Origin: Azolla caroliniana
Lineage: Eukaryota; Plantae; Polypodiophyta
Reading direction: 5' to 3'
DNA: 64,000 nucleotides
Assembly: GCA_043228905.1 (NCBI GenBank)
Contig: JBHGNT010000020.1
Span: forward strand, 8,308,001 to 8,372,000
This document shows, piece by piece, positions 15,730-63,866 of this stretch (its first letter is position 1; each line of letters opens with the position of its first letter). A model generated the notes under the pieces. The model ran no database searches. It worked only from the letters and a program-made list of their open reading frames with translations, and was not told the origin of the DNA. The position numbers were made by a program, and so were the translations under genes.

Positions 15730-15814
15730 AAAATAAATAAATAAATAAAATAAAATAAAAATAAATAAAATAAAATAAAAATAAATAAAATAAATAAAAT
15801 AAAAATAAATAAAA
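15730..15814 (+). repeat. (TAAA/TAAAA)n A-rich simple repeat in G1 3' region; Sola2 target site
   Basis: Directly visible; A-run continues at 41760. Confidence 0.9.
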
Positions 15815-15840
15815 GGGTCGAAGCATGCTACGGTGTACCA
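15815..15840 (+). repeat. Left TIR of Sola2-type element
   Basis: 25/26 match to reverse complement of 41734-41759. Confidence 0.92.
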
Positions 15841-16150
15841 ACTTTTGGCCAAAAATTTAGTGCTAAATCGAAGAAGAAAATAAACATTAAAAATTGTAAA
15901 TAAATTTCAAAAAACAGAAAACAAATTCATTATGTCACACTCGAATGCACAAAGATATTATACGTCACACTCGAAATGTCCCTAGGCCATATTTAATACA
16001 TTAATTGTTGCCCTGGTCTCCTAGGTAGAGTTGTACGAAAGCACACCTGGAGAAGGTATCCATTGTGACAGTTGGTCAGTCTCAGTATCTCTCTCTCTCT
16101 CTCTCTCTGGTATGGGTAGTCGAACGTGTCAGTTGGTATGTCTCTCTCTC

Positions 16151-16190
<40 letters not shown>

Positions 16191-16511
16191 GTCTCGAAGT
16201 TGTCAGACAGACAGTGGCAGAAAGTTAAAGAAAGACGACATATCTATTACAGGTCTATCTCTCTCTTTCTCTCTCTCACTCCACCTTCGAAGCTCTGTTT
16301 CTTTCTTTCTTTCTGTTTCTCTCTCTCACTCCACCTTCGATTCTCTGTTTCCCCACGTAGCTGTTCTTGTGTTCCCCTCTGTGCCAGGTTCGATCTCGAA
16401 CTCTGTATACGCAGAGATTTTTGTTTCCCCTGCTCGTTGTATGTGTTGTTGACTTTCCTTCCTTGTGTATGCTCGTTTGTCTCCTCTGCAGCAGCCTCAT
16501 CAACAACCTCT

Positions 16512-16726
16512 TGCATATAGGTGATTTTGAAGGCTTGGTGTGCTTCCAAGGTGTCGAAATCAACACGGTGTGGTACCTCTGCAAGTTGTACGACCTCCAG
16601 GTATTCTCTGTGTTGCATGCATATAGGTGATTTTGAAGGCTTGGTGTGCTTCCAAGGTGTCGAAATCAACACGGTGTGGTACCTCTGCAAGTTGTACGAC
16701 CTCCAGGTATTCTCTGTGTTGCATGC
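16512..16726 (+). repeat. Perfect 106-bp tandem duplication containing an AG...GT-bounded putative 5' UTR exon
   Basis: TAG|GTGATTTTG...CTCCAG|GTATTC occurs twice at 106-bp spacing. Confidence 0.8.
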
Positions 16727-18749
16727 CCAACTAGTATGTTTTCTTTTTCTGAATGTTTCCTGTCTGTCTATTTTTTATTTGCATGTGTATGGCCATTTTT
16801 AGGTTTTGATTATTCATAGTCTATGTGTTGCATGCCCAACTGGTATGTTTTTGTTTTCTCTGTGTTTCTTTTAAAAATGTATGACAATATTTTGATCGAG
16901 GTGGTTGTGTGTTAGACATGTTTGTACATGCAACATAAATGGAGTTGGCAATGATGAGTTGCTATGTTTTCGTTTTGTTCTTGTTTCCTGTCCATCTGTT
17001 TTATTTTGTGTGAGTTTGACATGGATGAGTGTTTTTCTTACTATTTTGGGTTTTTGTGTGTTTGACATGGCTTGTACATGCGATGTGATGGAGTTGGCTA
17101 TGATGATTTACAATGTTTTCATTTTCTTTGACTTTCCTATCCGTCTGTTTTTATTGTCTGTGTGTTTGACATGGATGAGTTTTTTTCCGACTATTTCGGG
17201 TTATTGTGTGTTTGACATGGTTTGTACATGCAATGTGATGATTTGCTATGTGTTGATGGTAATTGCTTGAGTTTTCTTCTAGTACATGCATATTCATTCC
17301 CTGAGAATTGTGTTGACTAGGACAATGACGAGAAGGACACCCATAAAGAAGACATTGATGAAAGAGAAAGTGAAGACACCAGTGAAGGAAGGAAGAAGGA
17401 CACCCATGAAAGAAAGCAAGAAGACACCCACAAGAGAAAGGGTGATGAATTCATCAACACAGAGAAAGAAGATGTACCACTCCATCAATCGAGACACACC
17501 TCTTGGATGGAATTATTTCCTTCGAGCACGACCTAACGTTTATCCAGAGCTAAGAGAATAGTTGTTAAAAACCTGGGGGTCAGCACATCCCGACACAAGG
17601 CGAGGATTCCACATAAGTGGTTTGAAGAGGGAATACATGAATTTATTGAACACGAGATACGAACATGAATCAAATCACTAACAATGAGGTGGGTACTGTT
17701 TTTGCACGTGCTTTTGCATGTGAAGTTCAAGGTGGCATTGACGTAAATTGGGAAGATTTTAATCGGCACCGGTCAGAACATTACAAAGGGTCCTCCAGTA
17801 CCAACACTGGCTTGAAGTCATCTGGAACCTCTCATGTGGATATTCCAGCTACAACACCTGTCCACCAAGTTCTAGAGGCAAAGGTACGGGCCACAATGAC
17901 TGAAAAGCATGAACAGATGATGGCCGGTTGCATAGCTTCTATGAGCTCAAGAATACAAGCATTACTTGCTGATTTGGAAGCAGTTAAATCAGCTGAGATA
18001 CAGGCAGAAAAGAAATTTTCTTCAATAAAAACTACATATGAATGGATTGCATCGACAATCCAAAATTCAGAAAGTGAGGTGTTGAAAGAGGAGTTGAAGA
18101 AAGAGCTGAACAATATGGGCACTCAATTAGGTTCACAGATGAGAGACCTTGATACTTGCAGGAATGCACATGAAGAAATAGATAATAAGTTGTCAGCCTT
18201 AAAGTTGCATTCTGAGAACCTTGCATGCTTGATGCAGGATTTAAAACAAAATGGTTTTGATACTTTGTGTCCATCTGTAATTGAGCACCCAAGTGGTATA
18301 GAAAGTACCATTATTAGTATAGCTATATCACGGTATTGGCTTTAAAAGTTATTTATTTCTACTTCTTTGGTATAAATAAGTGAGCAACTAATATATTATA
18401 ACTTGTGTTTGCAATCTTCCAGGTGTATATTTTGTGGCCTCGGATTCAAGCTAGAGGCTATGGATGTTGTGATTACACCATGCTTGCACACATATCATGT
18501 GCTATGTGCTAAGTATCATTTTGAAAAAGAGAATACATGTATGGACTGTAAAACTACAATTGCGGCTGAGTGGTACTATGCTTGGGGTTTAAAAGTACAC
18601 CCGTACGGTATGTGGCTCTACTATTCTATTGTTTGTATTATATGATGTCAATTAACATTTGGACTAGAACTAGTGTATGCCACAATTCATACTTCAAATT
18701 TAGTGTAATCTCTAACAACTATTATGTGGAACCCTAATTATGTGGGTTA

Positions 18750-20575
18750 GTATTGGCAGTACTCTTAATATATAATTGGTATGTGTAGTTGAAGGGATAT
18801 TTTCCAAAATTAGTAGTACTAAAAGGGAACCATGTACAACATCGTCCAATCTATATTGCAACTTGCCTAGTATTAGTTTAGTAAACACTATACTTATAGT
18901 ACACTGTTGACTGTTAGTATTGTTTGTGTAACTTGGGAATTAGTACTAATAATGTAATTTGGGAACAAGGTGTATAGTAAATTGTTGAATAATAGTACAA
19001 TTATTGTAATTTGGAAATGAGGTGTGTCAAACACATATCACGTTTAGTACTAATACTGTTGGTGTAATTAGTACAAGTTATGTAACTAGGTGTGTAGAAC
19101 ACATATCATGTTTACTATTACTTGTGTGCAAAATACCAATCTACATTTGTTGGATTAGTACTTAGTAAGTACTACATGGTTCATGATTAGTACTAGTTCT
19201 GTACTTTGTGAACTAAGTTACTAGTACATTGCTCATGATTAATACTAGTTTTGTAATTTGGGAACTGAGTAGTACTTTGTTCCTTATTAGTACTAGTTTT
19301 GTACCTTATTAGTACTAGATCAGTAATCTAGAAAATAAGTGAGTAGTACATTTTGTAGGATTAGTACTAATTGTGTAATTTGACTACGTTAGTGGTACAT
19401 TGTTGAGTAGTACATTGTTCAGGATTAGTACTAATTGTGTAATTTGACTAAGTCAGTGGTACATTGTTCGGGATTAGTACTCCTTGTGTAATTTGGTAAC
19501 TAAGTGAGTAGTATATTGTGCATGATTAGTACTACTTGTGTAAATTGGGAACTAAGTGAGCATTGCATTGTTCAGGATTAGTACTCCTTGTGTAATTTGG
19601 TAACTAAGTGAGTAGTATATTGTGCATGATTAGTACTACTTGTGTAAATTGGGAACTAAGTGAGCAGTACATTGTTCGGGATTAGTACTAGTTCAGTGAT
19701 TTAGGAAATAAGTGAGTAGTACATTGTTCAAGATTAGTACTACTTATTAATTTGACTAAGTCAGTGGTACATTTTTCGGGATTAGTACTTGTGTAATTTG
19801 GTAACTAAGTGAGTAGTATATTGTGCATGATTAGTACTACTTGTGTAAATTGGGAACTAAGTGAGCAGTACATTGTTCGGGATTAGTACTAGTTCAGTGA
19901 TTTAGGAAATAAGTGAGTAGTACATTGTTCAAGATTAGTACTACTTATTAATTTTTCGGGATTAGTACTCCTTGTGTAATTTGGTAACTAAGTGAGTAGT
20001 ATATTGTGCATGATTAGTACTACTTGTGTAAATTGGGAACTAAGTGAGCATTACATTGTTCAGGATTAGTACTCCTTGTGTAATTTGGTAACTAAGTGAG
20101 TAGTATATTGTGTATGCTTAGTACTACTTGTGTAAATTGGGAACTAAGTGAGCAGTACATTGTTCGGGATTAGTACTCCTTGTGTAATTTGGTAACTAAG
20201 TGAGTAGTATATTGTGCATGATTAGTACTAATCGTGTATATTGGGAACTAAGTGAGCAGTACATTTTTCCTTATTAGTACTAGTTCAGTAATTTAGGAAA
20301 CAAGTGAGTAGTACATTGTTCAAGATTAGTACTACTTATTAATTTGACTAAGTCAGTGGTACATTGTTCGGGATTAGTACTCCTTGTGTAATTTGGTAAC
20401 TAAGTGAGTAGTATATTGTGCATGATTAGTACTACTTGTGTATATTGTGCATGATTAGTACTACTTGTGTAAATTGGGAACTAAGTGAGCAGTACAGTGC
20501 TCCTTATTAGTACTAGTTCAGTAATTTAGGAACTATGTGGGTAGTACATTGTTCATGATTGGTACATTGTGTAAT
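18750..20575. repeat. Intronic 52-bp tandem array with higher-order variants, core GATTAGTACT
   Basis: Alternating monomers GATTAGTACTCCTTGTGTAATTTGGTAACTAAGTGAG.../GATTAGTACTACTTGTGTAAATTGGGAACTAAGTGAG...; regular from ~19400, degenerate leftwards; inside intron 18608-20666. Confidence 0.9.
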
Positions 20576-22227
20576 ATGGGAAGCAGCTCTTGTGACCTAC
20601 ATTATATATTTTAGATGATGGTACTAACATTCAAGGTTTTTTTGTTTCTTGCAATGAATGTTGTAGTGTCAAGCAACTCCACGCTAGGGAAGGTAATGGA
20701 ACAACTAGCCCCTGTGCCTAAACCCTCAATATCTGCTGCACATTCCAAGGTTCAGGGACCATCATTACCAATAACCTATGCTTTTTATGATGAGGATGAA
20801 AGTATGAGAAGGGCCATTGGAGCAGTGGAACATATGCTTCTACAAACAAATTCCCCAAGCTCCGGTCAACATCAAGAAATAGAGCCCACTAAGAAGAGAA
20901 ATACAGTTTCTTTACAAATAGAGCCCAGTAAGAAGAGAAATGTTGCAAGAATGTTGTATGGAAACGGTAAGAAAGGCAAAGTTGAATGCAATGGTGAGTC
21001 ATATAAGTTCTCACCTGTCCGGAGCACTGTCAACCTAATCCATTGTCTAATACCATGTACTTGTGTTACTAGCTGATGACGAAATGATATTTGGTGACGG
21101 AGATACAAGTCCAAAACCTGATCGTGAAGACGAATTTATCACACTCCCAAGTACACGTCAAAAGCTAGACTTTGAAAACAATGATTTAGCTCATAACAAC
21201 CCTATTTTTGTTGCTATTATATGTAGAAAGTAACGTGCGGAAGCAAGTATGAAGACCGAATAGAAGGAAGGAAACTCAGGTTCAATGGAGAGCTTGAGCT
21301 TACACGGTATACGCGGGAGAGACACAGAGAGAGAGTGAGAGAGAAGACAAAAAATATAACAGAAGTACACAATCTCTATTCACCACTCTCTATACATATG
21401 TGTGTTCAATGAACACTTTTATACAAGTCCTAGAAGGACTGACAGAAGTACTGGCAGTACTTCAATGCTCATTTAGAGCTCCTACACTAACTCCCAAATA
21501 TATTCCTCACGGAATATCTTTCTTAACGACCTCCCGGTTTACGCACTCGGCCTAACCGATCGGTCCCAACCGATCCGGTCCTCGTCTTCTTCAGCCGATC
21601 CGGCCGATGTTGAGCTTGTCTCTCAACACTCCCCCTCAAGCTCAACTCGAGGCTCTTTGGGATCCTCAAGCTCACAACTCTGGTTCCTCTTGGCTTCACA
21701 CCTCGCTCGCGCTCCTCGACCTGTTCGACTCCGCGCGCTTCGACCCTTCTGGACGGCCTGTCTGCTCATGCGGCCCTTATCAGCTCTTCTGTTGTTGCGG
21801 TGTTGACGCGTCTCCTGCTGCCTTTTCTTCCGCTTGGGCCTCGGTTGATTCAGCGTATCTGAATCAAACATCCGAACCGACTCGGCTACCTCTGATCGGT
21901 TTTCGCTCTCGTCCGAGTTGGCTGTCTCCAACTCATCTTCGGTCTTCTCACCCTCGATGGCGTCATCTCCCCCATGCGTGGTTGGCTTCGGCTCTCTCCT
22001 TCTGTCTGCTTCCGAACTTTTCCGCGGGTCCGCCCTCGGCTTCTTCAGCCGATCCGAAGTCGAACTCGACAACCGAGTCAACAAACTCGGTGTCGCGGTC
22101 TCCGCTCCTTTCCTGCTGCCTTGCTTGGTCATTTGGGACTGTTCTCCCCCTCAAGTTTGGCACGTTGTCGTGAAGAATGTGCTTCACGATATAAAAATGA
22201 GCTTAAATGTTGTATTTAATAATATTT

Positions 22228-22422
22228 GAGAGACTTGAACCCACATCCTTATATACGATGTACAATGTACATACCACTAGGCTAGGCTATTTATTTGTAA
22301 AAGTGTGTAATAAATGTGCTTCATGATATAAGAATGAAGCTATATATTGTATTAAGTAAAATTGAGGGACTTGAACCCTCAACCTTGTATATCAAGCACA
22401 AACCATACACCACTAAGCTAGG
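22228..22422 (-). ncRNA. Two tandem tRNA-like A-box/B-box modules in G2 U3 (repeated in the 3' LTR)
   Basis: rc TAGCCTAGTGGT...GGGTTCAAGTCTC (22228-22287) and TAGCTTAGTGGT...GGGTTCAAGTCCC (22364-22422). Confidence 0.6.
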
Positions 22423-22670
22423 TTATTTGTTTTAGGGTTATATCATTATACTTATCCCAATACATGGGAGCTCAAATGAGCATGATGGCTATCATGCATC
22501 ACATGCAATGCATGTGCGCCAAATGGCGATCATGCATCAGATGTAACTCATGCATTACATGCATGACATTACCATATGCATGGAAATACTTATAAAAAGA
22601 GAGGAAAGGAAAACAAAAGGGAATCAAGGAATCAAGAGAGAGTGAAAAAATAATACAATCAATTGAAGAA

Positions 22671-22735
22671 GACTAGCTCATTGGGTGGAGAACCTCTCGT
22701 TTCGAAGTTGAGGTCGAGGGTTCAAATCAAGGGTC
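22671..22735 (+). ncRNA. tRNA-like module downstream of the G2 TATA box
   Basis: TAGCTCATTGG (A box) ... GAGGGTTCAAATC (B box) at tRNA spacing. Confidence 0.5.
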
Positions 22736-22900
22736 GGTATTGAAAAGATTCATCTTGCGATCAAGGATTGTAAAGTTGGTAAAATATTATATTTTTAATA
22801 TACATCATGTTTATATCATATACTCTTGTTTCTAGAATCATATTTTGTCTAAATCTTCTTTCTTGAATCATACATTGTCTCTATCTTTTATCTATGCTCA

Positions 22901-22944
<44 letters not shown>

Positions 22945-23088
22945 ACATTACTTGTAACTCTTCGCCGTACTACCCTTAACCATTCTATCATCACCATACA
23001 AGCCTTATTAAAAGTTAAGTTTCTTCAACTCCCCTTAACCTTAGTCCCCGCGACTTCACCGCACGAACCACAACTACCCCGACACATT

Positions 23089-23106
23089 TGGTGAACCCGA
23101 CGTGAA
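23089..23106 (+). promoter_or_regulatory. PBS complementary to tRNA-Trp 3' end (TGGTGAACCCGACGTGAA)
   Basis: Matches plant tRNA-Trp 3' end TTCACGTCGGGTTCACCA as recalled; identical at 50092-50109. Confidence 0.85.
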
Positions 23107-23123
23107 GGCGGCGACGAGGAGAA

Positions 23124-26100
23124 ATGGAGGAGCAAATGAGGCTTATGTGTACGATGATGGAACGAGTGATGCGGGAACAAGGGATGATGGCAAGCATCGA
23201 CAAAGCCGTCGACAATATTCTCGCACGAGTAGGAATCTTCGAAGGTATAAATTTAACAAGATTTCTGAAGATTTATAATGAAGAAATGCTTAAACGCGGT
23301 GTCGACGAAGCTACAAAAATTAATAGCTTTAGTCGAGTCGCTGCGATTGGGCTACAAGAGAGGATCCAAGAGCTCCAAAGGGAGAATCAGACATGGACAA
23401 CATTCGAAAGGGCATTACTCAATGAATACAACCTCAACGATATGTCAAGGATGACAAGGCAAGCTTTCATGGATTGGGTAGAGTCTAATAAACATTTAAG
23501 TGTTTTGGAAGTATTAAAAGAGTTTTCTGAAAGATTTGAGCAACTAAATGTTAGAGATAGAAATATAATAGTGCCAGATAAAGTCATATTGTTTCTACAA
23601 GCTACTAATATTAAAGACAGGAAGGACTTGGGAATGCTTTTAGAAGATCAGAATAGTCCAAGTGGACTTACCGAAGACTGGGAGGAGGTGAAAAGGACGT
23701 GAGCCCATTTCTGCAAAAGAAAGTTATGGTTTATGGAGTTGCCCGACAGAAATGATGAAGAAACGGGGAACGAGTCGGGAGAAAAGAAAGTAGAAGAATC
23801 ACTCTTACACGAATTAGTGAAAGGCATGAAAGACTTGTCGATCAAAGTGACGAAGCTAGAATCGGGACAAAGCTCGACTTCATCAAGGCAGGGAGGTGGA
23901 ATGGTCCGAAGGTGTATGTGGTGTGATAGTATCAACCACCAGAAGAAAGATTGTCAAGAGCATAGGGATGCTCTTAATCATAATAAAATCTACTATCAAG
24001 ATGGCAAGATTCACTCAACTGAGACTCGACAACCACTTCAACTCAACTTCGGGCGAGGAGGAATGAAAAGGCTAATGGAAGATGCCGAGAGAGAAACGAC
24101 TCAAGCGATACAATCCGTGGCAACCTTAGGATTGCGCGTAGAAGACTCATATGGTGGATCTGGCTTTTGGCAAGATGTGATGGATTATGCAAGAAAAGGG
24201 AAGGTTCGAGTGGATGAATTAAAAAGAGCGGGAGATGAAATACGAAACTTCACTGGATGGAATGATCCAGTAGACGCGCTATCAGCATTCGCCCAAGTGA
24301 ATGCACAAGATGTGCTAGTGGAAGAGAAGCGGAAGAGAGCTGAGGAAGCTGATCCGACAAAGAGACATGAGACACGAGAACAAAAGAGAAGGGAGATGGA
24401 AAAGGGTGCTATTGAGCCGAAGGAAGCTGATAAAGTAAAAGGAAAGACAGGCCCATCTTTCAAGCTTGCCTCAGACATAGAAACAACGATGGATATAAAA
24501 AAGGTACTAGAAACAAGAATATTAAATAGTAAGGTAGAATTTACTTTAAGAGAAGTGTTGGGTATAGCAAAGAAAGAATTTCATGAGGTTATCATAGATA
24601 TTATTAGAAGGAAGAGACAGGTGACGGAGGAAATTACGGGAGGGTGTGCAGCAACACTCCAAGATTTGTATGGTGGCACCATCAATGCTGCAAGTGTAAA
24701 AAACCAGAATGATGTTGGCGTCCATGAAGGGGATAGGAGTCACTATACAAGGGACCATTGGGCTCGAGCAACAACGGAGGCACCTGCAAAAATTGGGGAG
24801 CAGCAAATTCCATGTATTGCTTTGATCGATCATGGATCAGAGATTAACATGATGTCATCGGAATTTTACGCTCGAGGACGATGGCCGATCGACAAGAATC
24901 ATGGGTGGAAAATAAGAGCTGCCACAGAAACTATGGAGGATCTATTCGGAGCATGTCCTAGTGTGAAGGTAACAATTGGTGATGTCTCGGTGAATCAAAA
25001 TTTCTTTGTGCAGGATCGATCAACCTACCCCGTCATCCTTGGCCAGCCCTACATCACCGCAGTGAGGATGGAAACAAAGGTTATTGATGATGGTTCGGCT
25101 TTCGCGAGAATCAAGAGTCAAGATGGAAGAAAGACTGTCCAATTCTTAACCGTGAGGCCCAACCATGAAAGAAACAAAGAATGCTTGAGGGAACATCCAA
25201 TTCAAGAGATGGATGAAATGTGATAGCCCGAGCATAAAAGAAAACCCCATAAATAATAATGTAAATAAAGATATTCCTTGTACAATCTCATCTAATGGTG
25301 CTACTTTTATACTAAAAGTAAATAATAATAAAATACAAAATGCTTTCGAGTATTTTAAGTGTTCTGGATTAATAGATGATGATGAAGAAATTCAGGATAT
25401 GTTTGAAGAATTAAGTTTTGAAGATACAATAACTCATTTGGAAGCAATGGAAGAAGACAACGAAATCCAAGTTCCTGTCCATTCAATCAAGATGTATGAG
25501 GTCATTGAAGAAGTTGCTCGAAAGGATCATGAAGCACATGTACTAACAAAATACAAGACAGTGGAGAAGAAGGTTCGTCCTATTGCTGCTCCACTTCCAG
25601 GGGATAGTGAAAAGGCAATCAAAGAAGCAGCCACAGAGCCAATGATCAGAGACCCACGAAAGGTAGGACATGTGTTTACTCCGGAAACAATACAAGGGAT
25701 GAAAATAGGAGGGGGTGACTTCCTATTACCCGCTGAAGAAAAGCAGTTCAGGGAGATGTTAAAAAGGCATGGAAAGGCGTTCGCATTCCAACCGGAAGAA
25801 ATAGGGTGTGTGGATCTAGAAATTGTGGAGCCCATGGTTATATTCACTATCCCTCATATTCCATGGAACTTTAAGCCAATACCCATGCCTAGGGCTAGAA
25901 TCCCTCAACTATTAGAACTTTTGAAAGAAAAGATAAGGATGGGTATCTTGGAACCATCGAACGCTCCTTACTCGAGTCGATGGTTCACTGTGTTAAAGAA
26001 AGATGGGCGACTCCGATTTATCCAAGATATGCAACCCGTGAATAAAGTAACAATCCGAAACTCGGGAGTAGGGCCAATTGTGGATGAGTTTGTTGAGATG

Positions 26101-28650
26101 TTTGCAGGAAGAGCTATATATTCAATGGGAGACCTTTATTCCGGGTATGATCAATTTCAACTTGCTATCAAAAGTCGAGATATAACTTCTATCAAGACAC
26201 CTATAGGGTTAGTACGGATGTGCACCTTGCCGCAAGGAGCGACCAACTCAGTGGCACATATGATGAATGGAATGAACAAGGTACTTCGTGATTTTATTCC
26301 TCATATTACAATGCCTTTTCTAGATGATGTTCCAATTAAGGGATGCAAGGAGGAAGAGAAGAACGAGGAATTGGACGAAAGTGGTTGCCGTCAATTCGTT
26401 GCTGATCATATCAAGGATTGTGAGAAGGTGCTATCAAGGATGGAAGAAGTGCATTTGACCTTATCAGGGGCGAAGTCAATATTTGGGGCAAAAGAGATAT
26501 TAATAGTTGGTCATATGTGTGGCCCGTATGGGAGAAAGCCATCCCCAACCAAGGTCAATGCAATTCAAAATATGCAAGAGGAATGTACATCCATCTCAGA
26601 AGTACGAAGGTTTCTGGGGGTATGTGTTTTTTACTGTAAATGGATTCCGCATTATGCCCATTTATCTGAACCTTTATATAGACTCCTAAGAAAAGGAGAG
26701 ACATTTGAATGGAGTGAAGAGCATTCAGAGGCAATGAAGAAATTGAAGTACTACTTGGCACAAGCTCCACCATTAAAGCAACCAGACTACACCCGGCCCA
26801 TATATCTCACAGTAGACTCTAGTCCCATTGGAATTGGATGGGTGATAAGCCAACAAGATAGGGAAGAAAGGTATCCAGTCCGATTCGGGGCAAAGGTTCT
26901 TAGTGGTCGACAAAGAAAATATGCATAGGTGAAAAGAGAGCTATGGGGGATAGTAACAGCTGTAAAGACAGACAGAGATTACTTAATTGGTGCTGAAGTA
27001 ATAATAGAAATAGATTGTTTGCCTATTTTGGGTATCATAGCTAATTGTGATATTCCAGATCAAGCCATGTTAAGATGGTGTATCTATATTAGATCAATCA
27101 ACCCTGAAGTTCGACATATCTCTGGGAATAGAAATGCAGTAGCAGATATGTTATCAAGAGCAAGGTATGAGGAAGAGGAGATTCCAGACTCGGACAATGA
27201 GGACAAAGAACAAACAGTCCTTACCACAAGCATTACTCGGGAAGGAGGAATGCAGTTTCTAGAAGAGGAGTATGAAGATGAATTCAAGGAAATAGGGAAA
27301 TACCTACAAACCCCTGACAAGTACAAAGGTCGATCTGGAAAAGAGTTCGCATAGTTTCGCAAGAAAGCCCATAAGTTCTTCCTGTATGAAGGATATCTAT
27401 GGCGACATCCGAAAACCAAGACTGGAAACCCAGAAAGAGTAATAGGTTCTGAAGGGCAGAGAAAGGAGATAATCAAAGAGCTGCATGACAAAGAATGGGC
27501 TGGTCATCGAGGAGTGTGGGCCACTTTCAGTAAGATTAAAGAACGATTTTGGTGGCCTCGATACTATGAGCAAATAAAAAAGTATGTGGAAACTTGTCCC
27601 ACTTGTCAATATTATTCAAATGTAAAATTTTGTGATGAATTACACCCAACATACTCACCGGGGGTGCATTACAAGTTGATGATAGATTTGGTAACAATGC
27701 CACTTGGAGTAGGACAAAAGAGATACTTGGTTCTTGCTAGAGAAGATCTAACAAATCAAGTGGAAGGTCGTTCATTGAGAACAAAAGGGACATTAGGAGT
27801 ATGTCAATTCATCTTGGAGGACATTGTTTGTAGATATGGATGTATCGGGAAGATAGTGGCAGATAGGGGAGAACTCAATTCTGCGGAAGCTCAAGATTTT
27901 TTCGACAAAATAGGAATTCGGCTTTCTTTGACAACGGCGTACAATCCAGAAGCTAATGGAAAGGTAGAAAGGGGACATGGGCCAATAGTCAAAGCTTTGG
28001 CAAAGGCATGTAGAGGACGGGTTAGTGATTGGCCAAAAACCTTACCCTATGCACTATGGGCTGATAGGACAACTCACAGCACTGTTACTGGATATATGCC
28101 TGCAGAATTAATCACAGGACAGAAGCCAATAATGCCAATTGAAGAAAAGATAACTACATGGGTTGTGTTGCCTTGGGAATCAGAAATGAGTAGGGAAGAT
28201 TTACTTGCGGTTCGAATACGACAACTTCAATCAAGGATAGAAGACATAGAAAAAGCAGCTACTAGATTGAAAGAGGCAAGAATCAAGAATAAGGACAGAT
28301 TTGACAAGATGAAAAGAATACGACCAAGAAAGGTGCAAGAGGGAGATTGGGTATTAGTATATGATAATAGCCTAGATAATCAATACAGTACTATTCGGAA
28401 GTTTGCAAAAAGATGGTTTGGACCTTACGAAGTTAGGAAAATAACAGATAAAGCCACATATTTCCTCAATGAATTAGATGGGACAGAAATTCGTATCCCA
28501 ATTGCAGGAAAAAGGATTAAAATATTTAAAAGGAGGGAGTCATTAGAGCCTGAATTTTATGAAGAAGTAGAAGAACTAAAAGAATCGGAAGAAGTGTTGG
28601 ATGAACTCTGCACAACCAATGTGCAAGTTCAGAGGGGGTGGGTGTCGTGA
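23124..28650 (+). pseudogene. G2 gag-PR and RT-RH-INT with in-frame stops
   Basis: CMWCDSINH knuckle, IDHGSEIN, DLYSGYDQ, LPQGATNS, FLDD, NPEANGKVERGH, WFGPY. Confidence 0.9.
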
Positions 28651-29374
28651 AGAATGTGCTTCACGATATAAAAATGAGCTTAAATGTTGTATTTAATAAT
28701 ATTCGAGAGACTTGAACCCACATCCTTATATACGATGTACAATGTACATACCACTAGGCTAGGCTATTTATTTGTAAAAGTGTGTAATAAATGTGCTTCA
28801 TGATATAAAGCTATATATTGTATTAAGTAAAATTGAGGGACTTGAACCCTCAACCTTGTATATCAAGCACAAACCATACACCACTAAGCTAGGTTATTTG
28901 TTTTAGGGTTATATCCATCATTATACTTATCCCAATACATGGGAGCTCAAATGAGCATGATGGCTATCATGCATCACATGCAATGCATGTGCGCCAAATG
29001 GCGATCATGCATCAGATGTAACTCATGCATTACATGCATGACATTACCATATGCATGGAAATACTTATAAAAAGAGAGGAAAGGAAAACAAAAGGGAATC
29101 AAGGAATCAAGAGAGAGTGAAAAAATAATACAATCAATTGAAGAAGACTAGCTCATTGGGTGGAGAACCTCTCGTTTCGAAGTTGAGGTCGAGGGTTCAA
29201 ATCAAGGGTCGGTATTGAAAAGATTCATCTTGCGATCAAGGATTGTAAAGTTGGTAAAATATTATATTTTTAATATACATCATGTTATATCATATACTCT
29301 TGTTTCTAGAATCATATTTTGTCTAAATCTTCTTTCTTGAATCATACATTGTCTCTATCTTTTATCTATGCTCA

Positions 29375-29422
<48 letters not shown>

Positions 29423-29562
29423 TACTTGTAACTCTTCGCCGTACTACCCTTAACCATTCTATCATCACCATACAAGCCTTATTAAAAGTTAAGTTTCTTC
29501 AACTCCCCTTAACCTTAGTCCCCGCGACTTCGCCGCACGAACCACAACTACCCCGACAACGT

Positions 29563-32500: not shown

Positions 32501-33830
32501 CGTCTTTGCGCCCTTGCGTAATCACACGGCCTTCTTCCTCAATGAAGCACCCGAGGTGTGTAAACCCAACCTCCATCCCTTGGTCGACGATCTGTCCGAC
32601 CGAGACCAAGTTCTTCGTGATTGTCGGAACGTGCAGACGTTCATGAGTTTCCCTTTCTACCCGACATGGCTAAGGGGACCTTCTCTGACACTCGCGATCG
32701 GATGCGGAGTGTCGTCTCCAGTTGCGACTACTCCAGGTTGTATCGGTTTTTCAAGGTACGAGAACCACTCCTTATGGCTCGTCATGTGGTTTGAAGTGCC
32801 GGAGTCTACGTACCACACCTCGTCCGATCTCGGGGTGGTTCGTTTCATTGAGTTTGCTTCGTGTCTCGTCACGAAGGCAGACCCTTCTCCAGCTCTCCTG
32901 GAGTCTTCGGCGTAGTGCGATTGCTGCCGATTTCCCTTGTCGGTATGTCCGGAGCCGTTTCCGGAACCGGTTCTCTCCGACTCGGCGCGCTTCTTCCAGC
33001 ACTCACTTTCCCTGTGGCCTTTCTTGCCACAGTACCAACACTCCGCGATGGCCTTCCCTTGCCGGTTCTCATCGCTTCGACTACCCCTGTTTCCGGAGGG
33101 TCCGGAATTGCTGTAGGCATCACTTCCGTGCCTTCTTCCTTGATCTCGTCGGCCGCCTCCATTGCGCGCCGACTTGCCTCGTCCTCCACGTCCACGGGGC
33201 CTATCTCCCTCCATGTACAACATTCTGTTGTCGGTGTGCGTGCTTGTAGACGCACCCGTGTGGTTCTCCTCTACCAGGAGCATTGACTGTAAGTCGAAAA
33301 AGGACGGCGTATTCTCCCGGGTACACACAACCGTTCGGAACGCTCCGAACTTCGACGCCAAACCTCCGAGACAGATCTGGACCATCTCGCTCTCCTCGAT
33401 GTTCACCTCTATGGAGGTGAGGGAGTCGCAGATATCCTTGATCTTCGAGGTATGGTCCGCCGCTCGACAAGTCGCGTTATCGTAGGTTGCTCAACTCCTG
33501 TCGGAGCTGAAGCTTCCTGGCTGTGGTGCTCGTGGAGAAAATCTTCTTCAGATTTTCCCACGCACCCTTCGGTGTCTTTGCATCCCGAACATAGCTCAAT
33601 AGTTGTTCACCCACACACGACGCGAAGCAGTATAATACCCTGCTCGCCGATTGCTCCCACGACGGGAAGTCTCTGTGTGTTGATTCGGGTGCCGCGTCAT
33701 TAGCTCCTTCGACATAACTCCAGTAGCCATGCCCGAGCAGGTACTGGTGCATCTTGTAGGACCAAGACGCATAGTTGGTTCTGTCGAGCTTCTCTGTTGG
33801 AAGCGAGCTCGCCATGCCTCTATCCATCAT
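29563..33830 (-). pseudogene. C4 gag-pol
   Basis: CWYCGKKGH, WYVDSGTSNH, IHSDVWGP, YVDDL, TADIFTK; frameshifted; last codons continue at 22165 (HLDV|PNLRG). Confidence 0.92.
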
Positions 33831-35720
33831 TCTTCTTGTTCTTCTTCGTCAAGCTGTGTCGGCTGCAGAGAGGTTCTCAACCCTCACGCTCTGATACCAT
33901 GTAGAAAGTAACGTGCGGAAGCAAGTATGAAGACCGAATAGAAGGAAGGAAACTCAGGTTCAATGGAGAGCTTGAGCTTACACGGTATACGCGGGAGAGA
34001 CACAGAGAGAGAGTGAGAGAGAAGACAAAAAATATAACAAAAGTACACAATCTCTATTCACCACTCTCTATACATATGTGTGTTCAATGAACACTTTTAT
34101 ACAAGTCCTAGAAGGACTGACAGAAGTACTGGCAATACTTCAATGCTCATTTAGAGCTCCTACACTAACTCCCAAATATATTCCTGACGGAATATCTTTC
34201 TTAACGACCTCCCGGTTTACGCACTCGGCCTAACCGATCGGTCCCAACCGATCCGGTCTTCGGCTTCTTCAGCCGATCCGGCCGATGTTGAGCTTGTCTC
34301 TCAACATTATAGATCATAACAACACTGTTGAGCACCTAGATGTTGTGGAGAAGATGACGGAGCCCACCACTTGCAATGGGGTATCTACGGCTGTACAGTA
34401 TGACGATGTAACATTAGGTAAAAATGTGGCCCTAAACCCTATGTTCATTGTTTGCAAACTTTTGAGTATGTGAGTTGATACCAATATTCTTTGGAATCCC
34501 ATTAATTATGTTTACAAGAGCAGTCTGATTCCCATTTGCAATCAAATGAATCGGGAACTTCATGGAGCACAAGTGCAGAGTCAGATTCTGGTCAGAGTCA
34601 GAATCAAATTAACCTTTGCACGGAGGCAGACTCTGGAAGCACATCTTCCACACATGAGGATTGTGAGAAAAACGAAGCATTCATATGTGAAGAGCAGCTG
34701 GCATGTACAAACAACACTATGTCTAAAGAAGCCTATGAGGAGTGTGGAAAGAATATGGCAAGTACTGAAGAGAAGATTGAAGCCCATGAAGAGTGTGGAA
34801 AGAATATGGCAAGTACTGAAGAGAAGACTGATTGTACTGATAATGTGGCAAGTGTTGAAGAGAAGACTGATTGTACTGATAATGTGCTAGTACTGTCTAA
34901 AGATTCCCATGAGGATCATGGAAAGAACATTGCTAGTAATGAAGAGGAGCTTGATTGTACTGAGAATGTGCTAGTAGTGTCTTGTGAAGCCCATGAGGAT
35001 CGTGGAAAGAACATCGCTTTCCCTGAAGATAAGCCTGATTGTACAGAATCCCATGAGGAGTGTAGAGCGAACAACGTTACTAATAAAGGGGGGCTTGATT
35101 GTACTCAGAGCGAGCATACTAGCATCACCCAAGAGGACCAGGCAATAACGACCACCCAAGCAGGTACACGTTGTCTTAAGAATGAGGTGACATCCACCGT
35201 ACAAGAGGAGTTGACCATGACTACTGCCACGGTCCACATACAAGAGTCTAATAAGAACGAGTGTATAGGCATCAGTGATGATGATAGGGCAATAAAGATC
35301 GCTAGGAGTACAAGCATTCAGGAGATGAGTGATAATTTGTCTATCGACAACACCTTTGTGGATTTGTGTACAAGCATTGCAGTTGTAGAAAACACAGTTG
35401 CTCTCTCAAGCTTGCCACCAGTACAAGGTGCCCGCGCATCCACACCTGTCTCTGATGCCTCTGATGATGAAGTGCCACTTAGTCAGCTCATACCTAAAGG
35501 CTTTAAGATAAAGAAGAATGTAAAATCAGAAAAATCTGGCACCAACAACAAGCGCATTACAAGATCGGCCAAGTTTCCCTCTAGTGCCTGATTGTCTTTC
35601 GATTGTACTTGAACTTTAGTTGTTAGTGATGTCTGAAATTGAACTATTTGGATACCAAAATACTGTTTCAATTGCCAATGTCAAAAATCCAGTTCATGAA
35701 TTTGAAATAGTTATACCAGT

Positions 35721-36613
35721 GTGAAATCAAGTTCATGTTTAAGGATTGCTTCTGTATTTTGCTCGTCAACATATATCAAAAACAATGGGAATATACTTTT
35801 TGATCTAAGTATTCTTATTTTACAACGTTTTGTTTCTTTTTTGAGATCATCTCCTAATCCTCGCAAAGTCTTTCAGTCTGTTGTAGATAAAATGCTTGAA
35901 AGTCTTCTTAGCTTGCTAGGAAAATTTAGGTTTTCAGGTGTTGATGATGAGAAACAGAAAATATCGGGTGTTATTGAAGATATACTGAAGTATAGACTGC
36001 TTCATCAATCCCATTTGGAGAGTAACCAGAATGTGTGCAAATTGTTGAAGCAATGTGGGCCATATTTTGATGATATCATCCCAAAGGATGAACCATCCAC
36101 TAACAGTAGTAAGGAAACACTTACCTTTTTGAGCTATCACAAATTAATGTTTCAAGAGTTGGATTATTTTGTTAAGGAAAGGAAGGTCTGTACTTTAAAA
36201 TCCATAGCCTGGATATTCAGGACTTATATACAAGAAGTTAAAACTCAGATGGCTTCACAGGACATATCATGAAACAAAAAAGGATTCTGAGAGAATAATT
36301 TTCTTTGTTGTCTTCACAGAATTCATCGCCCCCTTTGAAGAATGAACTTACAGTAGAAAATCTTACAAAATTAAAGTCTTTAATGAATTCAACTAACAAT
36401 CTTCTCTTGGTAGCAAAAGAAGAGCAGATTTATGTGCCAAAAGAGGACACACCAACTCTTATGAATCTAGACTTTATCAAGAAGATATACAATATTTTTA
36501 CTCATTTTAACATGGCTCTGCAAAACTTCTATGCTCAAATAACATCAGGAAACATGAGCAATATCGGCAATGAAGTAATCCAAGTCCTGTTGACAACAAC
36601 TAATATATTATGA
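35721..36613 (+). pseudogene. Unassigned AT-rich ORF remnants between cargo gene and transposase 3' end
   Basis: 183-aa and 102-aa ORFs with helical, protein-like composition; no recognised motif. Confidence 0.3.
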
Positions 36614-36758
36614 AAGATAAGTACAAGTGGTTGAGAGGCATAAACACTTTAGAAGAAAGACAAAATATATCAATTCATTTGTCAATCATCAAAATTAATA
36701 GAGAACTCCAAGTGGATGTTTTTCAATTTTTTGGTACAATGTATTGATAGGGTGACTT

Positions 36759-39700
36759 TCAAGCATTAAATAGAGAGACTTCCCCTAATATTTGCTCATG
36801 AACCTCTTGGGGGACCTTGTAGACAGTGTTGTATCCCTTAACCTTGTGCTTTGCTTGAGTCATATTGAATTTGATCGCAAGAATGGCATCAACGTAGATT
36901 ATTGCGATAGGTGCTTCTTTTAGTAATGCATATGTGTTCTTGCACTGCGGCAACTTTGCATAATAGTTTCCATACACGACAGACTCACCAACGTTGAAAT
37001 TGTTGCCCCAACCATCCCTCACCACTTCTTTCAATAATGTCTTTCCTTGCTTGCACACCACAATGTAGTAGTCTTCTAAATCTTCATTCTGAGGAGATTT
37101 GAGCAGTGCAAAATGATCTCCAACTTCCAATAAAACTGCCAAGTCTTGATTTTGGTTGTAGTATACAATATCGTTTGAATGCACATCCCCTTCAATATCA
37201 TCTTGTCGTTCAAGCTCAAGCTTCTGTAGCTTCCAGGGCTCCACGATTGATAGGTTGATGCATTTATCCCAAGCTTCATCTAGACACATGGAACAAACGC
37301 ATGATAAACTACGGAGTAACAATTGTGTTGTGTCCTTGCGGCTAAACCCTAACACACAATGGGTGCTGCATGTGCCTTTCACGGTTTTACAACCATATGA
37401 TTTAGTTCTATCGACCTCATCAGCGCGAACTTCAACAAACAATCTGTTCTTACCATCATTTGACATCTTCGATGTTAGCCACTGCACAACATCATGTGCA
37501 TTTTGTAACTTAGCACCATTATTATCCAACTGCTCACTTGTAAGGGCACGTTTGATCACAGCCCCCGCGCCATCATGCTCTCCTTTTCCATGTCTAGACC
37601 CGAAGTAATTCCATTGCATACGAATATTGAATAAGGAGAAATACCTGCTTTGGTATCTCTGGTTTCCAACAAAATTAGTACTATGTTGTCAATTGAGAGT
37701 ACTACACTTCCATTAATACTGATTTAGTACAAATACAAAACAAAGCATAGCACAACGTATCCATTGAGAACACTCTACACTTATTAAAAGATAAATAGTA
37801 CTATGTTGTCAACCAACAGTGCCTGGCCTCCATTTAATACTAACTTAGTATGGATATAGCACAAAGTATAGTACAATGAGTTCATGGAAAGCACTCTACA
37901 TGTATTAACAGATAAATAGTACAAAATGTTCAATATCGGATAGTACAGTACAATGTGTCCACAGAGAACACAACCCTCCTTAGAAGATCATTAGTACTAC
38001 AAGACATGTACTTTACATCCCCCAATAAACACTGATTTAGTATAGATACAACACATAGTACAATACAGTGTGTTCATGGAGAACGTTGAACATTGATTAA
38101 TAGATAATCAGTACCACATAGTGTGTTTACAAGATGAGTACAAGATGAGTACAATACTATGAGTACAACATGAGTAAATACTGATTTAGTACAATTCTCT
38201 GAAGGACGGACAATACTATGAGTACAAGATGAGTACTTTACATCCTCTTGTAAACACAACATAGTACAGATACAACACACAACATAGTACAATGTGTCTA
38301 TGGAGAACCCTTCACATGGATTAAAACATAATTAGTACAATTCTCTTAAGGACGGACAATACTATAAGTACAAGATGAGTACTTTACATCCTTTTGTAAA
38401 CACAACATAGTACAGAACCAACACACAACATAGTACAATGTGTCTATGGAGAACCCTTCACATGGATTAATCGATACTTAGTACAATTCTCTTAAGGACG
38501 GACAATACTATAAGTACAAGATGAGTACTTTACATCCTTTTGTAAACACAACATAGTACAGAACCAACACACAACATAGTACAATGTGTCTATGGAGAAC
38601 CCTTCACATGGATTAAAACATAATTAGTACAATTCTCTTAAGGACGGACAATACTATAAGTACAAGATGAGTACTTTACATCCTTTTGTAAACACAACAT
38701 AGTACAGAACCAACACACAACATAGTACAATGTGTCTATGAAGAACCCTTCACATGGATTAATCGATACTTAGTACAATTCTCTTAAGGACGGACAATAC
38801 TATGAGTACAAGATGAGTACTTTACATCCTTTTCTAAACACAACATAGTACAGATACAACACACAACATAGTACAAGGTGTCTATGGAGAACCCTTCACA
38901 TGGTTTAAAACATAATTAGTACAATTCTCTTAAGGACGGACAATACTCTAAGTACAAGATGAGTACTTTACATCCTTTTGTAAACACAACATAGTACAAT
39001 GTGTCTATGGAGAACCCTTCACATGGATTAATCGATACTTAGTACAATTCTCTTAAGCACGGACAATACTCTGAGTACAATATGAGTACTTTACATCCTT
39101 CTATACACACAACATAGTATAGATACAACACACAACATAGTACAATGTGTCTATGGAGAACACTTCACATGGATAAAAAGATAATTAGTACAATTCTCTT
39201 AAGGATGGACAATACTATGAGTACAAGATGAGTACTTTACATTCTTTTGTAAACACAACATAGTACAATGTGTCTATGGAGAACACTTCACATGGATTAA
39301 AAGTTACTTAGTACAATTCTCTTAAGGACAGACAATACTATAGAGTACAATACGAGTACTTTACATCCTTCAGTAAATACTGATTTAGTACAGATACAAC
39401 ACACAACATAGTACAAACAAAATTAGTATGCATGCATCCATTCACAAGTGCAAGATTCGAATAGTTACAAACATAATTAGTATGCATCCATGTGAATAGT
39501 ACTGTTTGTTAATAGTTACAAACATAATTAGTATGCATCCACTAACACAAGATTTACTTCCTTACACATTGCATGATAAGTACTAAAAATATGGATTAAA
39601 AATTACCTGGCGATAAAGTAGAACGATCGTGCCGCCTTAAACTGCGAGGCAGCACCATCAGACCAAACCCAATGACGGTTAAAGGTTAACCCTAGAGAAA

Positions 39701-40733
39701 ATAAATCTGCATGGTGAAGCTTAAAACAATGTTGAACAAATAGTGTATCATGCTTTTTATCATCTGAAATGTAAAATATTGATTTCTTATGTAACTCACC
39801 GTCTTGCCTCCAATAGCAAATATGTACAAGTATTGTACATTGATCATTGTACCAATGCATTGATTGAACCTCATTTTGAACTTTAAATGTATAGTTTTCT
39901 GCAAAATCAATAACGGATACGATGACACCCGTTGGTAAGTTATTAATACATTCCTTGAACTGTGAATTTTGCCAATAACTCCGGAAGTTATGTGGAATGA
40001 ACTCCCCAAGTTGTACAATTCATGTACAATTCAACCTACATCAACCAATATATATAGCAAACATTAATATAAACTTGGTCAAAACACAAAGTTATGGAAT
40101 GTGAATTGATATAAAAAAATGGAATACCTCTGTCATCTCCAAGAAGTGTCTAGGGTGAATCTGGTACTTACCCTGACTTATTCGTTGTCTACACACGTCC
40201 TTCTTATTTGGTGAGACACGCGTATTTTTGGCCCAAAATGAATCCACTTTCTCAATAATCTCTTGAGATAAGGCATCACATCGTCGTCTACGTCCCAACC
40301 CCAACCACTTGAATTTGCTTGAGTGTATATTTCGGCGATGTTTCCTCAAGTTCCTTCTTTGAATACCCAGGGCTAAGGCAACTTTAGTTTCACTATATTT
40401 TTTTTCTCTCACACCGTTCACAACCATGTGTAGGGCTGTCCTCTTTGCAGCAAGTTTGTCTAAGCTCTCTACACCTTTCACTAAGTCTAGGGATGACTTC
40501 ATAGACTCCACAATCTCTTCTGAAACACATTGGTCCCTCTATTTTATTCTCTCCATGTCTTCATTCAAACTTTGATGGTGTAACACTCTACTGATAATAT
40601 CCCTACGATCCTCTTCACTAAATCTCTTCGTTATTTCTACCAAATAACGGACTATGTGAAGAACCACTCGTCTCTTAGTCCTTTCAGATATGCATGAGTT
40701 ACTTGACAACTCACTCTCGTTAGGAACCCCCAT
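36759..40733 (-). pseudogene. Sola2-type DDD transposase, three exons (40733-40128, 40035-39607, 37644-36759)
   Basis: Exon 2 reads VSVIDFAENYTFKVQNEVQSMHW...WSDGAASQFK...FIAR, spliced in frame (phase 2) to YFSLFNIRMQWNYFGSRHGKGEHDGAG; stop at 40539-40541 and apparent deletion/frameshift near 40010-40035. Confidence 0.85.
38180..39420. repeat. 146-bp tandem array (about 8 units) in transposase intron 37645-39606, AGTAC-rich
   Basis: TTCTCTTAAGGACGGAC recurs at 38341, 38487, 38633 (146-bp period); each unit has several AGTAC. Confidence 0.92.
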
Positions 40734-40966
40734 TCGGTCACTAGATTTATCTACAAAAATTAAGTGTCTTGCGAAAGTAGTTAATGTTATATAGACTCAA
40801 CCAAGAAAACACAATCAAATGTTTTTAAATGTGGCCTGCAAAGTGAGAAATATTTTGTTTCAAACATTAGAATTACATATCAAATATGACAAATGTCAAT
40901 TCTAAAAATTTAGTACTGAAATATGAAGAAATGAAACATTTTAGTACTGAAAATAAAAAAATGGAT

Positions 40967-41212
40967 GGAAGGAACCTCCAATGGTGGAGGGAGCGTTGGA
41001 TATGCCGCCTCGATTTGGTGGAAGGAACCTCCAATGGTGGAGGGAGCGTGGATATGCAGCCTCGATTTGGTAGAAGGAACCTCCAATGGTGGAGGGAGCG
41101 TTGGATATGCCGCCTCGATTTGGTGGAAGGAACCTCCAATGGTGGAGGGAGCATTGGATATGCCGCCTCGATTTGGTGGAAGGAACCTCCAATGCCACCT
41201 CGATTTGGTGGA
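40967..41212. repeat. 53-bp tandem repeat (about 4.5 units) upstream of the Sola2 transposase
   Basis: GGAAGGAACCTCCAATGGTGGAGGGAGCGTTGGATATGCCGCCTCGATTTGGT units. Confidence 0.9.
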
Positions 41213-41733
41213 AAAAGCCCCAAATCACCACGACATCAACTGCAATCGGTGGAAGTAAGAAAGTCGTTGTCGAAGAAGTCACTATTGGCTGCTGCCTAAA
41301 CCCTCAAAACAGTCTCTGTACCTCAACCTAAACCCTAACAAAAACAGAAACCCTAAAAAAATCAGAAATCCTCAACTCAAACTCTCCAACCAGATATGGA
41401 TGTCTGAGATTTAGATTGAAGGAAAATCAGAAACGTGACATGGATGTCTGTGATGAAAAGCTCAGAGGGATAGAGGAAGAGGAGTATGAGGGGAAGCGCC
41501 AAAACGACGTGAGGGGAAGCGCCAAAATCAACGTGAGGGGAAAATAGCCCCCAAAATGGAAGAACATCTCCTCACGTGTTCCCCCCACTCCTTCTATAGT
41601 AAATGACACTTGTACTACAGTCACCCCACTGTCCAAAATCGATTTTCTTTTTCTCTAATTTTTTTTCTGAATTATTCAGTACTAACAGTATTGAAAGTAC
41701 TGACAATTTTTGTGGCCAAAAACAGTACTTTTC

Positions 41734-41759
41734 TGGTACACCGTAGCGTGCTTCGACCC
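41734..41759 (-). repeat. Right TIR of Sola2-type element
   Basis: TGGTACACCGTAGCGTGCTTCGACCC followed by AAAA. Confidence 0.92.
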
Positions 41760-41841
41760 AAAAAAAGAAGAAGAAGATAGCGACTATTAAAACGACTAAA
41801 AGCATGCACAAACTCCTAGTTCAAGAACACGCGGCACCACG

Positions 41842-59400: not shown

Positions 59401-59540
59401 TTAAGCATGTCCAAAATTGTAGGTCTTTCAAAACAGGCCTAAATAATAGACATGCCAAACTTACAAAAGAATGTACAAAATGACTACCACCTATATTTAT
59501 ACATATTCGTTAACTGACATTTTGATGTACAATTCAATAT

Positions 59541-62294: not shown

Positions 62295-62819
62295 CTTGAA
62301 GCCTAACTTAAATTAACACCTTTCTCTTGTTTAAGTAGAAGTTTAAGAATTTAAGATCTAGTCTACGAACATAAACCATATGAAGACATCTTGGGATAAA
62401 AGATAAGGTATATTGACATCATATTATTATTTAATATTGTAAATTTTTTATAATAAATTATTGTGTAATATTGTATTTTTTTAAGAGAAAATCTTTTTTT
62501 TAAAATAATTATTTTATTTTCCAAAAAAACAATTTAAGTTAACTATATAAATAGAGATCTACCGCTCATTATCTCTTACACGTTTCAAGAGCTCAGAGCA
62601 CTCTTTAGAAAAAGTCATCTTTTTCTGTGTTCATCAACACATTGTCAACAACTAGTCTAACATGAAATCGAGCAAGACAGTTGGTAAGTAAGTCTTCTAT
62701 TACCCAAATTTAAAGATTCCTAAAGATACCATAAAGATTCTTTTTTATTATCTATAAAATTGAGTGACTTTAATTATAATTAGTTTGGTGTATGTATAAT
62801 TTCTTCAGTTTCTTGAGAG

Positions 62820-63866
62820 GATGTCCTGTCTAATTCGATGCAGTGCATCAGATTAGAAAGTACTTCCTCGCTAACTCGATGAACTGCATCGGGGTAGATA
62901 GGAAATTAAGACAACACATACATAAGAGTAAGAGGTTATCGTCCCTAATCCGATGCACTACATTGGATTAGGGAGGATATGATACGACATCCTCTAAAAT
63001 CCGATGGTTATCCTCCCCAATCCGATGCAATGCATCGGATTTCAGACGATGTCGTATCATATCCTCCCTAATCCAATGTACTGCATCAGATTAGGGAGCA
63101 TTGCATTAGATTTAGGAGAAGATGATCAGGAAACCTCTGAAATCCGATGCACTGCATCGGATTAGGGAGAAAATCCTCCCTAATCCGATGAAATGCATCG
63201 GATTTCAGAGGATGTCGTATCATATCCTCCCAAATCCAATGTAATGCATCGGAGTAGGGAGGAGATGATGAGAAAACCTCTGATTTCAGAGGATTTCCTC
63301 CCTAATCCGATGCTACAGTGCATCGGATTAGGGAGGAGATGATCAGAAAACCTCTGAAATCCAACGCAGTGCAACGGATTTCAGAGGATGTCCTCTCTAA
63401 TCCGATGCGGTGCATTGGATTAGGGAGGAGATGATCAGAAAACCTCTGAAATCCAACGCAGTGCAACGGATTTCAGAGGATGTCCTCTCTAATCCGATGC
63501 ACTGCATCGGATTAGGGAGGAGATGATCAGAAAACCTCTGAAATCCGACGCAGTGCAATGGATTTCAGAGGATGTCCTCTCTAATCCGATGCACTGCATC
63601 GGATTAGGGAGGAGATGATCAGAAAACCTCTGAAATCCGATGCAATGCATCGGATTTCAGAGGATGTCCTCTCTAATCCAATGCAGTGCATCGGATTAGG
63701 GAGGAGATGATCAGAAAACCTCTGAAATCCCATGCAGTGCAACGGATTTCAGAGGATGTCCTCTCTAATCCAATGCGGTGCATTGGATTAGGGAGGAGAT
63801 GATCAGAAAACCTCCCAAATCCGATAAATCCTCTGAAATCCGATGCACTGCATCGGATTTCAGAGG
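62820..63866. repeat. 92-bp tandem array made of two alternating palindromes (core ATCCGATGCANTGCATCGGAT)
   Basis: TCAGAGGATGTCC recurs at 63381, 63473, 63565; degenerate toward 62820. Confidence 0.92.

Follow-up and report, generated by a model that had tools for sequence, protein, structure and literature searches.

One short motif in two intron arrays of dissimilar monomers in a Sola2 transposon of Azolla caroliniana: a putative self-recognition system arranged like VANDAL/VANC

Why should two introns of one DNA transposon, filled with tandem repeats built on different monomers, both be crowded with the same short word, and is there a protein that reads it? The question is raised by a 64,000-nucleotide stretch of Azolla caroliniana DNA (GenBank assembly GCA_043228905.1, contig JBHGNT010000020.1, positions 8,308,001 to 8,372,000 of the forward strand; called the window here and numbered from its first letter), in which an element at 15815-41759 holds a Sola2-type transposase gene and, facing it, a cargo gene for a protein with a coiled coil and a RING-H2 domain. 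An earlier note on this DNA had proposed that the motif AGTAC(T), amplified in both introns, belongs to an anti-silencing system like that of the VANC proteins of Arabidopsis VANDAL elements, with the cargo as effector. As far as comparison of sequences can tell, the pattern of motif arrays that points to self-recognition in Sola2 is a real, comparatively supported new variant; the anti-silencing effect is putative. The motif-bearing features of the element are as follows.

19161..20575, plus strand: cargo intron, tandem array of 52-bp units with two AGTAC/GTACT sites each, 42 in all (29.7 per kb)
38186..39416, no strand assigned: transposase intron, tandem array of 146-bp units with as many as five sites each, 42 in all (34.1 per kb)
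18608..19160, plus strand: degenerate motif-rich part of the cargo intron, 7 sites against 0.87 expected
37645..38185, no strand assigned: degenerate older unit copies in the transposase intron, 15 sites against 0.84 expected
41678..41729: three subterminal AGTACT (starts 41678, 41696, 41724) beside the right terminal inverted repeat (TIR), 3 in 74 nt, Poisson p 5e-6
40912..40948: two AGTACT (starts 40912, 40943) upstream of the transposase start

The background for AGTAC/GTACT is 1.8 per kb in the nested retroelements and 1.4-1.6 per kb in the window outside the Sola2 element, so that the proposed scarcity of the motif in the retroelements and its clustering near the right end are both borne out. 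AGTAC remains the top 5-mer of both introns once near-identical contexts are collapsed, and it was found in 14 and 16 distinct contexts. The proposal that both arrays are rich in TAGTAC/AGTACT stood for the density of AGTAC in each, but the full palindrome AGTACT dominates the 52-bp array only (29 of 42 sites) and accounts for 9 of 42 sites in the 146-bp array, where AGTACA is dominant. The non-palindromic AGTAC sites lie on the plus strand in both arrays, though the cargo and transposase genes face each other. On counting the ends separately, 6 sites were found in the right non-coding kilobase versus 1 in the left 1.5 kb, from which AGTACT is absent. Three further tandem repeats in the non-coding DNA of the element lack AGTAC, and therefore not every repeat of the element amplifies the motif.

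16512-16726: 106-bp tandem repeat in non-coding DNA of the element
16905-17313: 150-bp tandem repeat in non-coding DNA of the element
40966..41194, no strand assigned: 53-bp array

It had also been held that the two arrays do not descend from one monomer, and we detected no homology between the 52-bp and 146-bp units beyond the motif, either with motif-kept shuffles (p 0.17, 0.29) or with a motif-anchored test of the two monomers (p 0.26-0.90). A likeness of the monomers downstream of the motif, seen by eye, was not above chance. For the degenerate intron flanks the motif-kept shuffles gave a borderline similarity (p 0.05 and 0.09). A second copy keeps the motif as well: in the sister copy L061, of about 90% amino-acid identity, the same intron holds 21 sites within 1070 nt and its array is shorter, and the size of the array thus varies between copies (intron of about 1.07 kb in L061 vs 1.96 kb). 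Between the window and L061 the motif columns of the 3′ intron flank are kept in 49 of 52 cases versus 307 of 366 for their neighbours (p 0.03), and among the 146-bp units 1 of 26 motif columns is variable versus 23 of 120 elsewhere (p 0.04). These signals are weak, the p values being uncorrected for multiple tests, and the motif is better kept than its surroundings in two of the four comparisons made.

These results bear on an explanation that needs no binder, whereby a short AT-rich seed was copied from one non-coding part of the element to another and then multiplied through slippage and unequal crossing-over. The borderline flank similarity (p 0.05) and the difference in array size between copies are consistent with it, but the window monomers are unrelated outside the motif, the motif stands in many distinct contexts, and it is better conserved than its neighbours in half of the comparisons. 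We return to this explanation with the related families.

The element itself is a Sola2 transposon by its letters, present as a broken copy. Its own DNA amounts to about 12.9 kb; the rest is a Copia, with a Gypsy inside it, that interrupts the cargo gene.

15811..15814, no strand: left target site duplication AAAA, 4 bp
15815..15840, plus strand: left TIR, 26 bp, starting GGG
41734..41759, minus strand: right TIR, 26 nt, 96% match to the left TIR
41760..41763, no strand: right target site duplication AAAA
21222..34306, minus strand: nested Copia, long terminal repeats identical at 402 of 407 positions, target duplication TTATA
22166..29559, plus strand: Gypsy nested within the Copia

Sola2 TIRs start with GRG. 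Membership was judged on the transposase motifs DF(A/S)ENY, SDG..Q(F/Y)K and HGK..DG.G..VKR, on a 4-bp AT-rich target duplication and on TIRs, all of which were found. The window transposase has DFAENY, WSDGAASQFK and HGKG..DGAG, which match the published Sola2 alignment when compared by eye. A 4-bp AT-rich target site duplication is the rule for Sola2 (PMC3627910), though both flanks of the element are A-rich, which weakens AAAA as evidence. The identity assigned in the earlier note thus holds. The integrase frame of a Gypsy ends at 15700, just ahead of the element. The family is present in DNA runs of four organisms and in leaf/plant metagenomes. One contig of run X19 departs at 34393 into letters matching 39610 onward, with CTG common at the junction; it is likely an internal deletion derivative that would have dropped the 146-bp array.

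We then compared 80 related loci, grouped into 45 clusters, on metagenome contigs that are mostly partial and in which arrays are perhaps collapsed. Each array family has its own word: TACCATT in L004, AGTACC in L002/L005, TAGCTA in L006/L073, TAGTAG/GTGGTA in L007, AGGTGA in L009, TAGCAT in L001/L003 and AGTAC in L010, whose intron is non-tandem. In a transposase tree of 27 sequences sister lineages have common motifs; L044, for instance, whose end holds TAGCTA three times, is joined with the TAGCTA-array family L006 with 100% support. A first test compared the intron with the downstream region, both fixed beforehand from protein matches, in 21 of the 45 clusters and the window (the clusters left out mostly lacked one of the regions, and the upstream region of L025 and L033 was set without an exon match). 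The motif word was common to 3 of 22 own pairs versus 10 of 462 cross pairs (p 0.014). In a second test, covering the window and six elements with termini inferred from likeness to the window TIR and no partner TIR seen, the own terminus was the best match to the intron words in 4 of 5 (p 0.008) and 5 of 7 cases (p 2e-4) with 5-mers, while 6-mers gave p 0.017 and 4e-4; the intron of L010 preferred the end of the window element, which has the same motif. A third comparison, descriptive only as its zones were partly chosen after the motifs were seen, found the top word common to 5 of 6 independent within-element pairs versus 35 of 268 between elements.

The words common to parts of one relative reach 14-18 nt (16 nt in L005; also in L001; an alignment score of 64 against a null maximum of 39 in L004), and their length in L004 and L005 suggests copying of a short piece. 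This favours the binder-free explanation, as does the absence of a common word in many distant loci with arrays. But dispersed occurrences of the motif are also found at termini and in the intron of L010, which is non-tandem, and taking both sides together we consider mere copying and amplification unlikely. A different explanation is that a host transcription factor is drawn to the arrays, in this case an SBP/SPL protein, each family having captured a different one. SBP domains bind a GTAC core and the moss protein PpSBP2 binds GTACT (PMC3617394), and AGTAC recurs in three separate transposase clades (window, L010 and L002/L005). The other families, however, use TAGCTA, TACCATT, AGGTGA and TAGCAT. 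Several of these differ from TAGTAC by one or two changes, as would be expected of a single protein with drifting specificity more than of jumps between host factors; recruitment of host factors is distinctly improbable. Because the word is family-specific, stands in many contexts, occurs at a terminus and in the introns of both genes, and changes between families, we regard it as probably the recognition site of an element-encoded protein, either cargo or transposase.

Which of the two proteins would bind has to be judged from the genes. The cargo gene consists of the following parts.

17325..18332, plus strand: coding exon with a basic tail, a folded domain of about 100 aa and a coiled coil
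18423..18607, plus strand: RING-H2 exon (zf-RING_2, E 3.7e-5, under the curated cut-off)
20666..21221, plus strand: further exons, predicted with approximate boundaries, the last split by the Copia
34307..35591, plus strand: 3′ part, in which an acidic tail with tandem peptide repeats (34728-35114) is followed by a basic end

We infer that the 3′ part belongs with the 5′ part across the Copia. The peptide repeats also carry AGTAC/GTACT, with 9 sites in the 1.3-kb tail where about 2 are expected. In the window copy the coding exon is interrupted by a stop (17559-17561) and has lost 11 nt behind 17667; neither lesion is present in DNA contigs of two organisms and one presumed-RNA run, so that the accessory gene is intact elsewhere in the family. 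With the exon read through with X, 8 relatives of 95-35% identity were found, and a profile search found 41; in P0043 and P0023 the coil continues into the RING within one frame. Diverged relatives of the cargo are transcribed at a low level, a statement that does not extend to the window copy: 53 polyA reads of organism C matched, each less than 95% alike and in cargo sense, and 16 of the 53 have a loose end fitting a splice from the coding exon into the RING exon. The read comparisons apply to the element outside its arrays.

In the structure model the basic tail of the cargo is disordered, residues 61-165 form a predicted folded domain (pLDDT about 80-90), and the coiled coil is long. The folded domain is the best conserved part, with 56-62 of 105 residues identical in the most distant relatives versus 5-7 of about 35 in the linker. 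A fold search with the whole model returned generic coiled coils as the only matches, and one with the domain alone nothing above Z 3.9 and no Foldseek match at E<=0.001 in PDB or BFVD; for the domain model (pTM 0.55) the best Z was 3.9, and the VANC21 structure 9LNK, which stands for the VANC/PMD fold, was not among the matches listed. A PDB sequence search gave coiled-coil matches only, ESM Atlas had no usable match for P0008 45-170 or P0010, the coil piece alone as query found no longer homologues, and no relatives of the cargo were found in the viral or prokaryote contigs searched. A relation of the domain to the L013 gene or to the extra open reading frame of the host Gypsy found no support (hhalign probability <1%). 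The transposase gene is laid out as follows.

40110..40737, minus strand: first coding exon with a helix-turn-helix-like segment, stop near 40540 in the window copy
39607..40040, minus strand: exon with the DFAENY and WSDG motifs
36759..37644, minus strand: last exon with the HGKG..DG motif

Near 40010-40026 the window transposase lacks about 630 nt held by the family copy L012. A helix-turn-helix transposase is a close rival to the cargo as binder. It would bind the motif through its N-terminal helix-turn-helix, the subterminal sites aiding end recognition, and the intronic arrays would serve for self-activation or, as a sink, would hold transposition down. In the window, L004, L009, L010 and L044 the distance from motif to terminus is at most about 90 nt; L009 and L010 have the motif within the TIR region, and the TIR of the window comes to within one mismatch of it. 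Motifs track transposase clades, weak helix-turn-helix matches are found in L004 (E 0.0025), and the AtMu1 transposase alone binds, hypomethylates and activates its cognate ends (10.64898/2026.08.24.746577). But the left end of the window element is without AGTACT, L004 and L044 have common inner TIR letters and different motifs, L004, L006 and L007 have similar helix-turn-helix segments and yet different motifs, and published cases of transposase binding concern termini, not introns. The transposase as binder is a less than even prospect that we rate as somewhat unlikely. It may be noted that, at a distance of about 30-47 nt from the terminus, three families with different motifs (L004 at ~84-102, L007 at ~1818-1836, L009 at ~67-85) have in common a subterminal palindrome of the ATGTC-n-GACAT type, which is a candidate for a conserved transposase site.

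We lean slightly towards the cargo, since most sites are intronic, one end has no sites, and the inner TIR letters stay while the motif changes. The conservation of its folded domain, and the coiled coil, tandem peptide repeats and motif-array intron that it has as in VANC, support the cargo as binder. The clusters of (T)AGTAC(A/T) may then, as a tentative reading that stays short of probable, be docking sites for an element protein, most likely the cargo, that keeps the genes of the element active against silencing. Under this reading the sites would be multiplied by tandem duplication, the basic tail and folded domain of the cargo would contact DNA, its coiled coil would oligomerise over the clustered sites, and its RING, as a ubiquitin ligase, would target chromatin or silencing factors.

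Several results weigh against the cargo-based, anti-silencing reading. The folded domain is without a Pfam match and is charge-neutral (14 K/R, 14 D/E), and the earlier proposal that the RING/coiled-coil cargo is the binder finds in it neither a recognisable DNA-binding fold nor a match to VANC domains. On the comparative side, the idea that related families keep the cargo and switch the motif held for the motif; no clear cargo homologue was found beside an array among the retrieved loci, whose contigs are mostly partial. Instead, the array families L001 and L009 have, on partial contigs, a NIF/FCP1-like phosphatase gene facing the transposase in place of the cargo (L001 2770-3972 and L009 5325-6104, both minus strand; Pfam NIF E 8e-15 and 4e-6), L013 has a coil and RING gene and no arrays, and a weak cargo-like frame in L044 reaches an hhalign probability of 4%. 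In the first test 19 of 22 elements were negative, all distant loci among them, and the window itself scored 2.5, just below the threshold of 3. The motif is not better kept in the 5′ intron flank of the window and L061 (7 of 10 vs 122 of 164), nor in the units of the 52-bp array (p 0.39). Finally, CpG observed/expected is 0.15-0.32 in all motif-array introns examined, a depletion that suggests long periods of methylation; it is unlike permanent demethylation, yet it would allow a transient or tissue-limited action. L001 and L007, though, likewise terminate with acidic tails resembling that of the cargo. Between the terminus and the cargo-like frame of L044, at ~1970-2320, lies an array rich in AACCCTAA, which we take to be telo-box-like.

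Between the cargo and the transposase lies one more feature.

35706..36613, plus strand: two open frames of no Pfam family, with a few plus-strand RNA reads

These frames are a possible second cargo. A second RNA run contributed 30 reads: over the last transposase exon they have transposase sense, and over 35.7-36.6 kb they lie on the plus strand. One contig has a poly(A)-like loose end at 35841, and the frames are partly deleted in organism C copies. Elsewhere in the window, at 59200-64000, is a second DNA transposon-like element with a DUF7869 protein on the minus strand (E 3e-50); its own 92/163-bp array (62934-63822) is built on the palindrome ATCCGATGCAnTGCATCGGAT and is without AGTAC enrichment.

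How far does this arrangement resemble what is known? In the literature examined, sequence-specific anti-silencing is demonstrated only for Arabidopsis Mutator and for Arabidopsis/maize Spm, and a literature search that was thin on subscription papers found no description of motif arrays, accessory regulators or cargo of this kind in Sola elements. That plant Sola2 independently evolved a VANC-like system of self-recognition and anti-silencing, in which a RING cargo would bind the family motifs of introns and termini and would have diversified together with them across at least six families, is a doubtful proposition on the present analysis. The Sola2 families with their own motifs nevertheless form a ready panel for the repeated evolution of such systems and for which protein sets specificity. 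Should the cargo turn out to bind, it would add a new DNA-binding domain, linked to a ubiquitin ligase, that might serve as a tool to activate chosen genes; should it be the transposase, the idea of the transposase as regulator would extend to intronic arrays.

With Sola2 elements as described, the element shares the DDD transposase motifs, short TIRs, an AT-rich 4-bp duplication and the capacity for passenger genes (PMC3627910, PMC10741241). Like the Spm/CACTA TnpA and AtMu1 transposase systems it has family-specific motifs clustered near a terminus, which in those systems are bound by an element protein; the sites and hypomethylation are terminal there, whereas most of the sites here fill large intronic arrays, and of the two ends of the window element just one has them (10.64898/2026.08.24.746577). 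The likeness to VANDAL/VANC lies in a dense short motif of one orientation in introns and terminal non-coding DNA, multiplied by tandem repeats, and in an accessory gene with a coiled coil, tandem peptide repeats and a motif-array intron (PMC5735166, PMC13547354), and also in a motif that differs between related families (PMC5735166). The differences are that VANDAL elements are Mutator, whereas here there is a Sola2 transposase with a 4-bp duplication; that the Sola2 motif has 5-7 nt against 8-9 for VANC and is known from sequence alone; and that the cargo has RING-H2 and no DUF1985/DUF287/PMD match in the sequence searches (neither DUF1985 nor DUF287 among the Pfam matches of P0007 at E up to 1, nor in the 25 top families of 74 listed for 17 relatives). 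Given the different superfamily and the absence of VANC sequence domains, the Sola2 system is arranged like VANDAL/VANC without being a member of it.

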